DNA of 64,000 nt from Candidatus Micrarchaeota archaeon (GCA_021816885.1 JAKAWS010000003.1:5091-69090); one strand, 5' to 3'. Numbered from the stretch's first letter, positions 10,303 through 44,676 are shown. Numbers and translations: made by a program. The notes: generated from the letters alone by a model not told the origin.

Positions 10303-10391
10303 GGGTCTATAGCTCAGCTTGGTTAGAGCGGCTGGCTCTTAACCAGTAGGTCGAGGGTCCAAAATCAAAGATGGAAATCCCTCTAGACCCG
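10303..10391 (+). tRNA. tRNA-Lys (anticodon CTT) with a 14-nt insertion (putative intron) in the T-loop
   Basis: Acceptor gggtcta/tagaccc, D-arm gctcagcttggttagagc, anticodon stem gctgg/ccagt with loop ctCTTaa, T-stem gaggg/ccctc. The T-loop is 21 nt (tccaaaatcaaagatggaaat) rather than 7. Removing 10361-10374 restores tccaaat. Confidence 0.75.
10361..10374 (+). other. Putative non-canonical tRNA intron (T-loop position 56/57) in tRNA-Lys
   Basis: 14 nt, aaaatcaaagatgg. Its 3' end (tgg) pairs with T-loop nt 54-56 (tcc...a) to give a 4-bp helix, and a 3-nt bulge (aat) precedes the T-stem. Confidence 0.55.
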
Positions 10392-10396
10392 CACAA

Positions 10397-11557
10397 CTAA
10401 GGCTGCATCCAGTCAATCTCATAATACTCATACTCGCTTCCAGGCAGGTCGATCTTCTTTATCTTGTAGTAAGTGACGGATGTCTCTCTATCGGCAATCG
10501 CCACTACAAGTTCAAGCTTTCTCGATTTCGACTCCTTTATCATGCTTGAAAGCTCTGCGCCGCCTATATAGGAACTTTCCGTCAGAGAAAGCATCGCGTA
10601 AGACGGAGCGCTGTGCTCTGGAGACTCGCTGTCCCCTCCTTTCCTGTGATAGAGCACAAAGTCTATCTCCTCATTTTTCTTCCTGCTCTTTCCAGGTATC
10701 GCAAGTATGAACGTCTTTCTTACAGAATGCGCGACCCGTATGGCTCTTGACCACTCCGAAGTCAGTAGTTTCTGGTCCTGCGGAAATACATGAAGGACGT
10801 GCTTGGAATGGGTCCAGTTCTCATCCTTTATCGGCTTTGCGCCAGGGAAATATATCCTAAAGTGCGTTCCAAACTTAAAACCAGTCTTTACCACATACCC
10901 TTTCTCTCTCCAGTCTGCATACACCTCATACAGCTTCATAAAATCCTGCCTGCGCTTCCTGGCAGCATCTACTATCTCTTTCTTGCTAAAGCCATCTATG
11001 CTCAATACCCCTTTATCTATAAGGAAGACCGCTTCGTATATATCGAGCTTGTTCAGAATCCCTCTGTCGCTAGCTTTGTAAGTGCCATACTGGCCTAGCC
11101 AGAACTTGTCGTATATCTCCTTCCCCTTTTTCTGATCGTCGATTATGACTGTTAGGTCTTCTGGGAAGAATACTCCTTCGAGGCTTATTCCTCTCAGGTT
11201 CAGGTTTGATGCAGGATACCTTTTTATGGGTGTTCTATCAGATCCAGACTCGTGGTCCGGTTGTTTTATCACGAGTCCTCTGTCTCTCCAGTCCTTGAAC
11301 GTGAAATATCTCGCCATGGACTTCTTCGAACTGAGCCCTTTCGCAATCTCGTTAAAACTTACACTATTTCCTAGCGTATCTGTGCACGAAGCGTTTCTCA
11401 CATCAATCAGATAAAGCGCCTCAACTAGATCCAGATGCAAAAGACCGGAATCCAACCTTCCGAAAGAGGTGCGCCTAAGGTTGTCTATCGTAGACTGGTC
11501 CTTCACAAGCGCCATGTGCGCTTTCCTATCATATATTATCTCAAGCATGCAGTCCAC
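10397..11557 (-). CDS. endA: tRNA-splicing endonuclease, multi-unit (epsilon2-like, three-unit) form
   Basis: 386 aa. The central unit carries the catalytic signature YADWREKGYVVKTGFKFGTHFRIY (Tyr/His/Lys triad region). An N-terminal EndA-like unit (LVEALYLIDVR...) and a C-terminal degenerate unit (HVLHVF...VAHSVRKTFILAI) flank it. The length matches the three-unit enzymes reported from ARMAN-type archaea. Confidence 0.8.
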   Translation of the reverse strand: MDCMLEIIYDRKAHMALVKDQSTIDNLRRTSFGRLDSGLLHLDLVEALYLIDVRNASCTDTLGNSVSFNEIAKGLSSKKSMARYFTFKDWRDRGLVIKQPDHESGSDRTPIKRYPASNLNLRGISLEGVFFPEDLTVIIDDQKKGKEIYDKFWLGQYGTYKASDRGILNKLDIYEAVFLIDKGVLSIDGFSKKEIVDAARKRRQDFMKLYEVYADWREKGYVVKTGFKFGTHFRIYFPGAKPIKDENWTHSKHVLHVFPQDQKLLTSEWSRAIRVAHSVRKTFILAIPGKSRKKNEEIDFVLYHRKGGDSESPEHSAPSYAMLSLTESSYIGGAELSSMIKESKSRKLELVVAIADRETSVTYYKIKKIDLPGSEYEYYEIDWMQP

Positions 11558-33980: not shown

Positions 33981-34118
33981 GGGGTTGTGGCGTAACCAGG
34001 CAGCGCAGTGGGCTCCAGATATTTAGTATTAAGTTGAGCCGTTTGGGCGATGATGAGAATCTGGAAATATGAATAGTGAAGTAACCTGCTGGTCCGGGTT
34101 CAAATCCCGGCAACCCCA
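33981..34118 (+). tRNA. tRNA-Trp (anticodon CCA) with a 65-nt intron at the canonical 37/38 position
   Basis: Acceptor ggggttg/caacccc, D-stem gcgt/gcgc, anticodon stem gtggg/cctgc with loop ctCCAg|a, T-arm ccgggttcaaatcccgg, discriminator A. The exons are split by 34019-34083. Confidence 0.8.
34019..34083 (+). other. tRNA-Trp intron (canonical position)
   Basis: 65 nt. Contains GATGATGA (box C-like, 34050-34057) but no clear CUGA box D. Confidence 0.6.
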
Positions 34119-37715: not shown

Positions 37716-37811
37716 GCAGGGATGGCGGAGCATGGTCAAACGCGACAGACTCAAGATCTGCTGGCTTAGGCCTACGGGAGTTCAAAACGAGAACAAATCT
37801 CCCTCCCTGCA
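37716..37811 (+). tRNA. tRNA-Leu (anticodon CAA, type II) with an 11-nt insertion (putative intron) in the T-loop
   Basis: Acceptor gcaggga/tccctgc, 3-bp D-stem, anticodon loop ctCAAga, long variable arm (tggcttaggcctac), T-stem gggag/ctccc, discriminator A. The T-loop is 18 nt (ttcaaaacgagaacaaat). Removing 37784-37794 gives ttcaaat. Confidence 0.7.
37784..37794 (+). other. Putative non-canonical tRNA intron (T-loop 56/57) in tRNA-Leu
   Basis: 11 nt, aaaacgagaac. Its 3' end (gaa) pairs with T-loop nt 54-56 (ttc), the same architecture as the tRNA-Lys insert. Confidence 0.5.
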
Positions 37812-39036: not shown

Positions 39037-39684
39037 ATGACAGAAGAAAATCTAAAGGGTATATTCAAGAAATACGAGCTCAAACCGCTGCCTTACAATC
39101 TGGATGCGCTTGAGCCTTACATAAGCAAAGACATAATGGATGTGCACTATAATGGGCACCATAAGGCATATGTGAACACAGTCAACAACCTAGTAGACAG
39201 GTTCGGAAAGATAGTAAACGAGGAGACGAAGGAATATGACATACAGGGAGTGGTGAGAGGCATAACCTTCAACCTGAACGGGCATAAGCTGCATTCCCTA
39301 TACTGGAACAATATGGCAGAGGAATCGAAGAGGGGAAAGCCGGGAGGCATGATAGCGGACATGATAAACAAGCAGTACAAGAGCCTGGACAGGTTCAAGA
39401 AGGTGCTGTTTGAGACTGCGACATCGCTGCCTGGCACCGGTTGGACGACCCTGAACTACGACGTGGAGAACGGAAACCTACAGATAATGACATATGAGAA
39501 CCATTTCATGAACCAGATAGCTGAGCTTCCAATAATAATGATACTTGACGAGTTTGAGCACGCGTACTACCTCCAATACAAGAACAAGAGGAACGACTAC
39601 ATAGAAGCATGGTGGAACCTGATAAACTGGGGCGACGTGGAGAACAGGCTAAGGATTGCAGTAAACAGGGCACCAGAACACTAA
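39037..39684 (+). CDS. sod: Superoxide dismutase (Fe/Mn family)
   Basis: [25 protein letters not shown] ... [13 protein letters not shown] metal-ligand motifs. 215 aa. Confidence 0.95.
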
Positions 39685-40757
39685 GCAAGGCTGGCTATAA
39701 CGTCCATAAGCTTGCCTATCGGACAGGATGTACGTATGCTCTCTTTCTCCATGTGGGTAAGAGAAGCAGAAAACCCACCCTCCCTAAGGGAGCTGATGAC
39801 CTTTCCAGGGCTCACTGAAGGCATCCGGGCAATCTTAGTAAGCACAGGCAGAGAGTAATAGAATAAAGAATCTGTCTCTTCGGATATCATGCTAGCAATC
39901 TTGGCGTCAGGGAATCCGGACCGCACGAAATACGAGCACGCGTCGCGCCGGACTTTCTCATCATAAAGCGGACCGAGCCACATAATCCCAGAAGAGACTG
40001 CGCCTGCCCCGCAAGCTCTGCAAACGCTCTGTTTTGGGATAAACCCGATTTTGGTATCTATATTCCTGCAGTCCATGCAATGATATGCAAAACCAAGGCT
40101 GTGCACCGTCGAAGAGGAATTGGCAGCGCCGTGCCTGAGTACAAAGGCAATTCTCATCATATGCCTGTAAGAGAAGGAGAAGATGACATCTATTCCGTAG
40201 TTGAACTGGGCGGATATACGCGCGCAATATCCTATGAGTATGCGAAGCCCTGCCTCATGGCAAAGTTCGTCATGGAGCGGCACAGAGCCATACATCTTCA
40301 TGCATGCTTCTGGCTGAGCGCCACAGAGGACTGCGGTATCGGTTGCGCTCACAAGGAAGATGGTCCCGTCCCTGCCTATCTTCATAAGGTCATACAGGTT
40401 AGGGACTGGGCTGCCAAACGGGTCAAGGTCTATGATGTCAAAACGCTCTTCTGAGGAGTTGGCGAAGCTCTGGATGCTCTCGTTGAGCACCTCAGCGCGG
40501 ATTCCGTTATCCGATAGGTTCTTCCTGGCAGAGATGCTCGCATCTTTATTTATATCCAAAAATGTCGCGTTCTCGATTCCAAGCTCTTTGGCATACCTTA
40601 TCCCTCTGATACCTGTCGCCGAAGTTGAATCGAGCAGGGTCTTCTTCCCGGAGAAACACGAGAGGATGGCAACGCTCATATCCCTAGGGAAACGCGAAAG
40701 AGGGTTTAGGAAAGCAGAACCCTCGTCTATGACCGCCAATCCCTCCTCATATCCCAT
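39681..40757 (-). CDS. trm1: tRNA (guanine26-N2)-dimethyltransferase
   Basis: [32 protein letters not shown], and a C-terminal Cys cluster. 358 aa. Confidence 0.85.
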
Positions 40758-43111: not shown

Positions 43112-44548
43112 TTAAGGATTAAGGACTCTTTTCATCATCTCCTGCCAGACTGGCTTCGCATAGCGTTCGGGCAGGCGTTTAAGGATTTTGCTCTTTCCTT
43201 TCATTATGTGGGAAGGAAACGGGAATTTTTTATCTTTTACAGCCCACCTGAGAAATCCTTCAAGGTCTCTTATTTCAGACTTTCTAATCGAGACAAGTCG
43301 TTCGCCAGACAGAAGTAATATCTCGCTGGGGCTATGTTTGAGATAAAACGACGATGCGCCATCTTTGATGAAGACGCTAGGGCCGCGGACCGACTCAGAG
43401 CCTATTTCTGCACGATTCAAGAAGAAAGTGATTATTGCCACATTCTGATAAAGGCTTTGGACAACAAGTATTGGCTCGGATATGCTCTCAGAGACCAGTT
43501 TTTCAAGGTTCTTTCTGAGCTTGGTTATCTGTGGCCATACGGTATCTTCAGATATCTTGCTGACAGGCATGACTATGCTGCATGACTCGATACTGAATTT
43601 GCGCTTGAAGCCTTCAATGCTTGCGGAGGCCCTCTCATCAGAGAATTTCTTCCCGAAGAATACAGATGAAAGATTCTTGGATGCAAGAAGCATCCTGGAT
43701 ATAATAACAAGCCTTGCGAAGGACTCGTCAGATACGGCGGCAGCGACATTCCTGTTCGGGTCGGTAGGATCCACAACTACAAGATTGGAGGCGAACCGCC
43801 TCGAGAATTCCAAGCCCCTATCGCCATATACGACCTCCTGTATTTCTGGCCTTATCAGGACAGGGAGTTTCGCGTCTGAAAGAGACTTCAGCATCTTAAG
43901 AAGGCTTCCGTAACTGCAGATAAGGAGCTCGCAAAGGTATCCGGAGAATCCGCCAATTCTTGCTTCGGCTCCGTATATGTAGTGTTGCTTAAGCAGGTAT
44001 TTGAGCGCACGCACATCGCCCTTCTGTTTTTCTGTTAGGTTATCATTCACAAAGATATTGTGGAGCGGGGTGCGATCAACAGCACTAGCGATCTCTGAAG
44101 CATCGCTTATCTTGAACGAGGGAACCACATCCGCGCTCATTCCAGACTTATTCTCGATGATCTTGAGGTAAGGATGTTCAGCATAGTTTATCACAAAATG
44201 CTCGTTCTTCCTATCGACTATGCGCTTAGCGATAAAAAGGGCTTTTTTCTCCATCTCCCTTTCCTCCATAACTTTGGGAAACTGAAGGAAAATGTCTATG
44301 TCCGAAGAGCCGCGTATCTGTGTGCCACGTGCGACAGAACCCGCCATTATTATCTCAACATCGCCGGGAAGCTTGCTCTTCAGCCTTGAGATTATTGAAT
44401 CAGCATACTCAGTAGTAAGAAATATCTCGTCCTTGGTAGGTTTAGTCTCGGATGCGATACGCTCTATCAATCTGGCAAGCGGTTCGGCAGGTTCGCTTGC
44501 CTTAACATTCTTCTTCGGCGGTTTAGCAGAGGAGCGCACGCACATCAA
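43112..44548 (-). CDS. cca: CCA-adding tRNA nucleotidyltransferase (archaeal class I)
   Basis: MAGSVARGTQIRGSSDIDIFLQF (Pol-beta NT motif) and the archaeal Cca body. The ~25-aa N-terminal extension in the ORF track may not be translated. Confidence 0.85.
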   Translation of the reverse strand: MMCVRSSAKPPKKNVKASEPAEPLARLIERIASETKPTKDEIFLTTEYADSIISRLKSKLPGDVEIIMAGSVARGTQIRGSSDIDIFLQFPKVMEEREMEKKALFIAKRIVDRKNEHFVINYAEHPYLKIIENKSGMSADVVPSFKISDASEIASAVDRTPLHNIFVNDNLTEKQKGDVRALKYLLKQHYIYGAEARIGGFSGYLCELLICSYGSLLKMLKSLSDAKLPVLIRPEIQEVVYGDRGLEFSRRFASNLVVVDPTDPNRNVAAAVSDESFARLVIISRMLLASKNLSSVFFGKKFSDERASASIEGFKRKFSIESCSIVMPVSKISEDTVWPQITKLRKNLEKLVSESISEPILVVQSLYQNVAIITFFLNRAEIGSESVRGPSVFIKDGASSFYLKHSPSEILLLSGERLVSIRKSEIRDLEGFLRWAVKDKKFPFPSHIMKGKSKILKRLPERYAKPVWQEMMKRVLNP

Positions 44549-44603: not shown

Positions 44604-44675
44604 GGGGCTCTTGGCTCAGTAGTAGAGCGCCTCGTTCGCAACGAGGAGGCCGCGGGTGCGAATCCCGCAGAGTCC
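44604..44675 (+). tRNA. tRNA-Ala (anticodon CGC), intronless
   Basis: Acceptor gggctct/agagtcc with the G3:U70 Ala identity pair, D-arm gctcagtagtagagc, anticodon loop ttCGCaa, T-arm gcgggtgcgaatcccgc, discriminator A. Confidence 0.85.
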
Positions 44676-44676
44676 A

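Follow-up and report, generated by a model that had tools for sequence, protein, structure and literature searches.

Very probable short introns of the relaxed bulge-helix-loop type in the T-loops of tRNA-Lys(CTT) and tRNA-Leu(CAA) of a Candidatus Micrarchaeota archaeon

The stretch of DNA analysed here (hereafter the window, 64 kb from a Candidatus Micrarchaeota archaeon) carries five tRNA genes, all on the plus strand, and a gene for a tRNA splicing endonuclease next to one of them. The tRNA genes are tRNA-Gly(CCC) (889-972), tRNA-Lys(CTT) (10303-10391, 89 nt including the discriminator G), tRNA-Trp(CCA) (33981-34118), the class II tRNA-Leu(CAA) (37716-37811, 96 nt including the discriminator A) and tRNA-Ala(CGC) (44605-44676). 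The last of these is uninterrupted and serves as an internal control. The other four (Gly, Lys, Trp and Leu) are interrupted, which agrees with the 56% of disrupted tRNA genes reported for ARMAN-2 (PMC3239211). CCA is encoded by none of the five genes, and a gene for an archaeal CCA-adding enzyme (43112-44548, minus strand) adjoins tRNA-Ala; a gene for Trm1, the m2,2G26 methyltransferase (39681-40757, minus strand), is located 1.9 kb from tRNA-Leu. The endonuclease gene, endA (10397-11557, minus strand, 386 aa), is convergent with tRNA-Lys and lies 5 nt from its 3′ end. Within the clade to which the window belongs (related loci L001-L005, L046 and L060), the distance between the 3′ end of the tRNA and the EndA stop codon ranges from 3 to 20 nt (10391-10399 in the window), so that the two convergent transcripts must end at nearly the same point.

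The EndA protein matches the Pfam family tRNA_int_endo (7.7e-30) over two stretches and also features N-terminal domains. In a phmmer search, its residues 10-386 align with residues 8-387 of PDB entry 4fz2, the epsilon2 EndA of Ca. Micrarchaeum acidiphilum ARMAN-2 (E = 2e-164). It is about 65% identical to the homologue from the ARMAN-2-like locus L007, which is itself 97.9% identical to 4fz2. The catalytic residues Y236, H250 and K281 are kept, as is the ARMAN-specific loop, GTYKASDR, with Y160/K161, the two residues that enable cleavage of bulge-helix-loop (BHL) substrates as judged from mutagenesis and a 1.8-Å RNA complex (PMC3488258, PMC12397907). On these sequence features, the protein encoded in the window is an epsilon2-type enzyme of the ARMAN-2 EndA family, and is predicted to cut BHL substrates.

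The interrupted genes are detected unevenly by standard tools. ARAGORN called tRNA-Ala alone among the five tRNA genes of the window, and missed those for Gly, Lys, Trp and Leu. The Rfam covariance model with default filters recovered four of the five, i.e. Lys (RF00005, 57.4 bits, full-length), Leu (RF00005, 40.9 bits, full-length), Trp (43.7 bits) and Ala (68.1 bits), with tRNA-Gly(CCC) recovered in E-value mode only (48.2 bits). A check by tRNA finders, as proposed in the initial annotation of this DNA, is thus positive for both tRNA-Lys and tRNA-Leu with the covariance model, but negative for both with ARAGORN. Three of the five tRNAs lack U at T-loop position 55 (TCC in Lys, 10358-10360, and in Gly, 953-955; TGC in Ala, 44657-44659), although U55, the site of pseudouridine 55, has been called nearly universal (PMC1616971). 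C55 is also found in many Micrarchaeota tRNA-Lys orthologues, in which the intron helix covaries with nt 55; a literature search on C55 or G55 in archaeal T-loops returned nothing specific.

The interruptions of tRNA-Gly and tRNA-Trp both lie at 37/38. The canonically placed tRNA-Gly(CCC) intron comprises 11 nt (927-937) and is of the BHL type, with a helix H formed by TTCC (921-924) and GGAA (932-935) and followed by the bulge AAA (936-938). The tRNA-Trp intron (34019-34083) comprises 65 nt, the usual length for Trp introns in which a box C/D RNA is nested (PMC4090602). It contains the sequence ATGATGA at 34050-34056, and an Rfam search of the intron reported no sRNA. A clean 3-4-3 bulge-helix-bulge (BHB) was sought by drawing the 65-nt intron and was not found; in the minimum-energy fold the anticodon region pairs with an internal CUGG segment, an internal AAUCUGG being complementary to the anticodon region.

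In tRNA-Lys(CTT), direct reading gives a T-stem GAGGG (10353-10357) / CCCTC (10379-10383), which encloses a T-loop of 21 nt, TCCAAAATCAAAGATGGAAAT (10358-10378). Removal of 14 nt (10361-10374) leaves TCCAAAT. In the alignment with the Rfam model the sole large insertion is located in the T-loop, where 16 nt replace 2 model positions. The exonic TCCA with which the loop begins (T54, C55, C56 and A57; 10358-10361) forms the 5′ strand of a central helix H whose 3′ strand is the intronic TGGA (10372-10375), followed directly by the bulge AAT (10376-10378). The last T of this bulge corresponds to nt 60 and is invariant in relatives, while the first two bulge bases vary (AA, AT, AC). A loop of 10 nt, in which at most two pairs are possible, stands in place of the second bulge and inner helix h′ of a strict BHB. 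The minimum-energy structure given by RNAfold for pre-tRNA-Lys consists of the T-stem, the 4-bp UCCA/UGGA helix and the 3-nt AAU bulge, at -10.4 kcal/mol with the helix, whereas the open loop comes to -6.8 kcal/mol.

The T-arm of tRNA-Leu(CAA) can be read in the same way as a T-stem GGGAG (37776-37780) / CTCCC (37799-37803) and an 18-nt T-loop, TTCAAAACGAGAACAAAT (37781-37798). Removal of 11 nt (37784-37794) leaves TTCAAAT, and the T-loop again holds the sole large insertion relative to the Rfam model, 12 nt replacing 1 model position. The 5′ strand of helix H is most readily drawn as GTTC (G53, T54, T55 and C56; 37780-37783), which takes the last base of the T-stem, and the 3′ strand as GAAC (37791-37794), with the bulge AAA (37795-37797) next to it and a 7-nt loop replacing the second bulge and h′. 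This geometry, with a 4-bp helix, a 7-nt loop and a 3-nt AAA bulge, is the same as that of the tRNA-Gly intron. The GTTC/GAAC register requires G53 to quit its T-stem partner; the outer helix, relaxed in this case, would then consist of the T-stem shifted by one base, or of 4 bp of the native stem next to a longer bulge. RNAfold places the Leu helix in the centroid structure only, and the helix is isoenergetic with the open loop. The energies of -7.0 (open loop), -6.9 and -6.8 (helix versions) and -4.4 kcal/mol (slipped T-stem version) give no thermodynamic choice among the registers.

The initial annotation had described T-loops of 21 and 18 nt in two otherwise fully canonical tRNAs, with the 3′ end of each insert pairing with nt 54-56 ahead of a short bulge. 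Lengths, coordinates and restored 7-nt loops are all borne out by direct reading, and the pairing is present and extends to four base pairs in each gene, ahead of the AAT (Lys) and AAA (Leu) bulges. To call the rest of both tRNAs fully canonical goes a little too far, as tRNA-Lys has C55 instead of U55 and tRNA-Leu an A27-C43 mismatch. In silico folding of the precursors, suggested at the same time, recovers the predicted helix and bulge as the minimum-energy fold for Lys, but for Leu in the centroid structure only.

Comparison with relatives was possible for both genes. Species-representative genomes were scanned for EndA, which yielded 80 related loci, all of Micrarchaeota type and almost all labelled Micrarchaeota; this assigns the window to an ARMAN-type archaeon. 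A convergent tRNA-Lys(CTT) gene is found downstream of EndA, within 2 kb, in 36 of them. Six loci with a Micrarchaeota-type epsilon2 EndA and tRNA-Lys (L012, L035, L049, L007, L014 and L029) belong to bins labelled Acidiferrales bacterium, Saccharimonadales bacterium, Methanothrix sp. or Marsarchaeota, and these odd labels are probably due to mis-binning or mislabelling in public assemblies. Slightly over half of the tRNA-Lys orthologues (19/36), including those of the ARMAN-2-like L007 and of the cultured strain A_DKE (L055), lack an insert and have T-loops reading TCCAAAT, TCCGAAT, TTCAAAT or TTCGAAT. The other 17 carry inserts of 13-44 nt, and in every one of these nt 54-57 are able to form pairs with a 4-nt segment located just ahead of the final three loop bases. 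The helix (nt 54-57 / intron) reads TCCA/TGGA in the window, L001, L002 and L033, TCCG/CGGA in L059, and TTCA/TGAA in L004, L005, L014, L015, L078, L050 and L058, with the combinations TTCA/TGGA in L003 and TCCG/TGGA in L031. Compensatory changes are thus evident at two of the four pairs (C55-G to U55-A, and A57-U to G57-C). Pairs were counted in an end-anchored alignment of the relatives (A1), in which 92% of the helix cells are paired; the covariation score of the helix was reached by none of 500 shuffles, and all slid registers scored worse.

The longer tRNA-Lys inserts feature an additional 3-nt 5′ bulge and an inner hairpin, i.e. a strict hBHBh′ structure, as exemplified by L003 (TTCA AAA TACCTT...AAGGTA TGGA AAT). 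Among orthologues of the two window genes, the second bulge and h′ are present in L003, L004, L005, L014, L015, L078, L108 and L137. In a tree of EndA sequences, the window groups with L001 and L002, all three having 14-nt tRNA-Lys inserts, and the sister group of these three is formed by L003-L005, with strict-BHB inserts of 20-29 nt. From this placement beside a strict-BHB group we infer that the tRNA-Lys intron of the window is a shortened derivative that has lost its inner helix.

Such conservation also bears on whether the two genes could be decaying duplicates or pseudogenes, with intact copies of tRNA-Lys(CTT) and tRNA-Leu(CAA) present elsewhere in the genome. Only 64 kb of this genome are visible in the window, and both genes are among those that ARAGORN fails to call. 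However, all stems of both cloverleaves are intact, the T-stem still covaries, AT-rich TATA-like boxes are located about 30 nt upstream of each gene, and no second copy of either gene is found within the window. Moreover, the interrupted genes are conserved, in conserved EndA synteny, across species whose EndA proteins are 60-88% identical. Decay therefore appears extremely improbable.

Relatives of tRNA-Leu were obtained by a metagenome scan with a D-stem/anticodon-arm pattern, which returned 79 loci. Near-identical tRNA-Leu(CAA) bodies are present at 46 of these, with T-loop inserts of 11-23 nt in 30 cases and a plain TTCAAAT loop in about 16. Across 31 interrupted sequences, including that of the window, the 3′ end of the intron is invariantly G-R-R-C-AAA followed by T60, and the rest of the intron varies freely. 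The GTTC (G53-C56)/GAAC helix is paired in 100% of cells in these 31 sequences (15 distinct). It varies on the intron side alone, to GAGC or GGAC, both of which form wobble pairs, and the exonic side is constant. Because the exonic side is invariant, covariation statistics are powerless in this case, and the predicted Leu helix draws its support from the conservation of intronic bases, not from covariation. One relative, L120 (metagenome contig ERZ1669250, NODE-355), has an intron in which the 3′ motif is duplicated in tandem, GAACAA GAGCAAAT, and which would thereby offer two alternative ruler helices. The A27-C43 mismatch of tRNA-Leu (37742, 37764) is also found in L127, L137, L146 and L155, the other relatives having A-T or G-C at this pair.

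A further reading is that the extra bases are retained in the mature molecules, and that these tRNAs work with enlarged T-loops as a structural oddity of a reduced genome. The lineage does tolerate other T-loop oddities, given C55 or G55 in three of the five tRNAs, and the Leu helix is energetically marginal. Nevertheless, a retained expansion would need neither an exact 4-bp helix with a 3-nt bulge nor covariation with nt 55 and 57, and such free variation in sequence and in length (11 to 44 nt) would be unexpected, as would its lack in close orthologues. Judged by established tRNA structure, an insert between nt 58 and nt 60 would disrupt both the T54-A58 pair and the elbow. An enzyme family shown to cut this kind of motif is, in addition, encoded alongside (PMC3239211). 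Retention of the enlarged loops is thus very improbable. Chance complementarity was also considered as a source of the helices: by simple arithmetic, a 4-bp match at a fixed position is expected with a probability of about (6/16)^4 = 0.02 per insert. This explanation was rejected, as the comparative data make chance irrelevant.

Taken together, the two inserts are very probably protein-spliced archaeal tRNA introns of the relaxed bulge-helix-loop form (hBH/BHL) located in the T-loop, from which we infer their cleavage and ligation as well as the exact cut sites. Both genes are otherwise complete tRNAs whose cloverleaf and 7-nt T-loop are restored by removal of the insert, as is typical of archaeal BHB-type introns. 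Both have the central 4-bp exon-intron helix, and in both a 3-nt bulge (AAT in Lys, AAA in Leu) lies directly 3′ of this helix, next to the outer helix h. The second 3-nt bulge and h′, features of the strict hBHBh′ form only, are lacking, and this assigns the window introns to the relaxed hBH/BHL subclass, as the initial annotation had held. Its view that these are real introns rather than degenerate tRNAs is likewise upheld by the adjacent epsilon2 EndA gene, by the occurrence of both intron-less and intron-bearing orthologues, and by the conservation of helix and bulge.

Splice positions can be predicted from the geometry of the central helix. [quoted passage not shown] The rule applied here counts 2 nt from the 3′ end of each strand of the 4-bp helix to the cut, and the mature T-loops so obtained match those of intron-less orthologues in 18/18 tRNA-Lys and 31/31 tRNA-Leu sequences (the latter all TTCAAAT). 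For tRNA-Lys, this 4-bp ruler predicts a 14-nt intron at 59/60, ATCAAAGATGGAAA (10364-10377), which is sequence-equivalent to a deletion of 10361-10374. For tRNA-Leu, it most probably delimits an 11-nt intron at 58/59 rather than 59/60, AACGAGAACAA (37786-37796), equivalent in sequence to 37784-37794 and to a placement at 59/60. Placements at 56/57, 58/59 and 59/60 are all sequence-equivalent in the window as a consequence of the A-runs that flank both junctions, and the candidate introns differ from each other by circular permutation only. An insertion after nt 56, as originally described for both genes, therefore yields the right mature sequence but is one of several equivalent placements, the geometry giving 59/60 for Lys and 58/59 or 59/60 for Leu. 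The related claim of a same position and same local fold in the two genes stands as far as helix and bulge are concerned, which are present in both; however, the central helices are offset by 1 nt (nt 54-57 in Lys versus 53-56 in Leu), so that a shared position of insertion is not established.

Alternatively, the two tRNAs might have a single common insertion site, with both introns at 56/57 or both at 59/60. This reading draws on the fact that deletion of 10361-10374 and 37784-37794 yields mature sequences identical, owing to the A-runs, to those from placements by the BHB rule, and on 56/57 being a known non-canonical site in Pyrobaculum (PMC4090602). A 59/60 register can also be drawn for Leu, in which H is formed by nt 54-57 and TGAA, with a native T-stem and a 5-nt 3′ bulge, and in which 91.7% of cells are paired. 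Yet neither tRNA has a conserved 4-bp helix with a strand that ends 2 nt before 56/57, and splicing at this site would give Lys T-loops of TTCAACT or TTCAATT in L005, L014, L015 and L078. Similarly, splicing of Leu at 59/60 would give TTCAATT in 9 of the 31 sequences, and the corresponding helix lacks the A57 pair in 5 of the 15 distinct sequences, including that of the window, whereas the 58/59 register has its G53-C pair without exception. A common site is accordingly unlikely, and the two neighbouring positions, 59/60 for Lys and 58/59 for Leu, are preferred.

By analogy with the pre-tRNA-Cys of ARMAN-2, which is cut in vitro (PMC3239211), the precursors encoded in the window would be cleaved and ligated as follows. 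Where the T-loop begins, exonic nt 54-57 (UCCA) in Lys and most likely nt 53-56 (GUUC) in Leu would pair with four intronic bases, leaving a 3-nt bulge directly after the intronic strand and ahead of the T-stem. The homodimeric epsilon2 EndA encoded beside tRNA-Lys would use the 4-bp helix as a measure and cut 2 nt 3′ of each strand, with one cut in the 3′ bulge and the other in the 7-10-nt loop that stands for the missing 5′ bulge. This would release the 14-nt intron at 59/60 (Lys) and the 11-nt intron at 58/59 (Leu). An RtcB-type ligase, presumably encoded outside the window, would then join the halves, and only at this stage could the 7-nt T-loops UCCAAAU and UUCAAAU and the elbow form. RtcB was not among the ten larger ORFs scanned in the window, as expected for 64 kb.

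We suggest, tentatively and with the odds clearly against it, that the Leu intron may define a conserved sub-class of mini-introns. Its ruler helix would invade the T-stem through G53 and the invariant intronic C, such that the T-stem of the precursor would be register-shifted or shortened, and splicing at 58/59 would entail an obligatory refolding of the T-arm. Together with the tRNA-Lys series, from a 29-nt strict BHB to a 14-nt BHL, and with the 11-nt tRNA-Gly intron, this might indicate that the epsilon2 enzyme has permitted intron reduction down to the physical limit (4-bp helix, 7-nt loop, 3-nt bulge), and that this limit is maintained by selection, e.g. for breaking integrase target sites in the T-arm, and not by drift.

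The intron class itself was published in 2011, and the genes of the window add instances of it rather than a new mechanism. They are nevertheless of practical consequence for annotation: standard finders skip such genes, and bins of Micrarchaeota would seem short of essential tRNAs unless intron-aware searches are used. The association of interrupted genes with this enzyme also provides comparative support for the published idea that broad-specificity endonucleases co-evolve with disrupted tRNA genes. Finally, the tRNA-Lys orthologues constitute a natural deletion series, in which inserts of one orthologous gene grade from the strict BHB form down to a minimal BHL, and this series could inform on the smallest substrate of epsilon2 enzymes.

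[quoted passage not shown] 2011, PMC3239211; Hirata et al. 2012, PMC3488258; PMC12397907). Phylum and endonuclease family are the same, as are the location in the T-loop (59/60 for Lys) and the relaxed architecture, in which the outer helix and the 4-bp helix flank a single 3-nt bulge and a loop holds the second cut site; the lengths are similar (14 nt for Lys and 11 nt for Leu). The window introns differ in that they interrupt other isoacceptors, and in that the Leu intron is most likely spliced at 58/59, G53 being drawn into its helix. Cleavage has been demonstrated for the ARMAN-2 Cys precursor, and is presumed for Lys and Leu of the window. As the tRNA-Lys(CTT) of the ARMAN-2-like L007 is intron-less, the Lys intron lies outside the intron set of that genome. 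ARMAN-2 pre-tRNA-Pro(GGG) offers a second comparison within the lineage, with two T-loop introns (53/54 and 59/60) that form a strict hBHBh′ structure (PMC3239211). A strict hBHBh′ at 59/60 is likewise found in the tRNA-Lys orthologues L003-L005, L014, L015 and L078, whereas the genes of the window have a single intron each, without the inner helix h′.

Introns of this kind had been described in the initial annotation as known mainly from Thermoproteales and ARMAN-type archaea, and a T-loop intron of this type is indeed published for ARMAN-2 (PMC3239211, PMC3488258). In Thermoproteales and other Crenarchaeota, non-canonical introns of 11-129 nt occur at 53/54, 56/57, 59/60 and further positions, together with an (alpha-beta)2 EndA that features a Crenarchaea-specific loop (CSL) (PMC4090602, PMC3241643). 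The 11 nt of the shortest window introns equal the reported minimum. Short HBh′/hBH introns in the T-arm, and the co-occurrence of a broad-specificity endonuclease with many disrupted tRNA genes, are common to both systems. In contrast to the crenarchaeal heterotetramer with its CSL, however, the enzyme of the window is of the epsilon2 type with the ARMAN-specific loop (ASL), and the lineages are unrelated; the two enzyme types are viewed in the literature as convergent.
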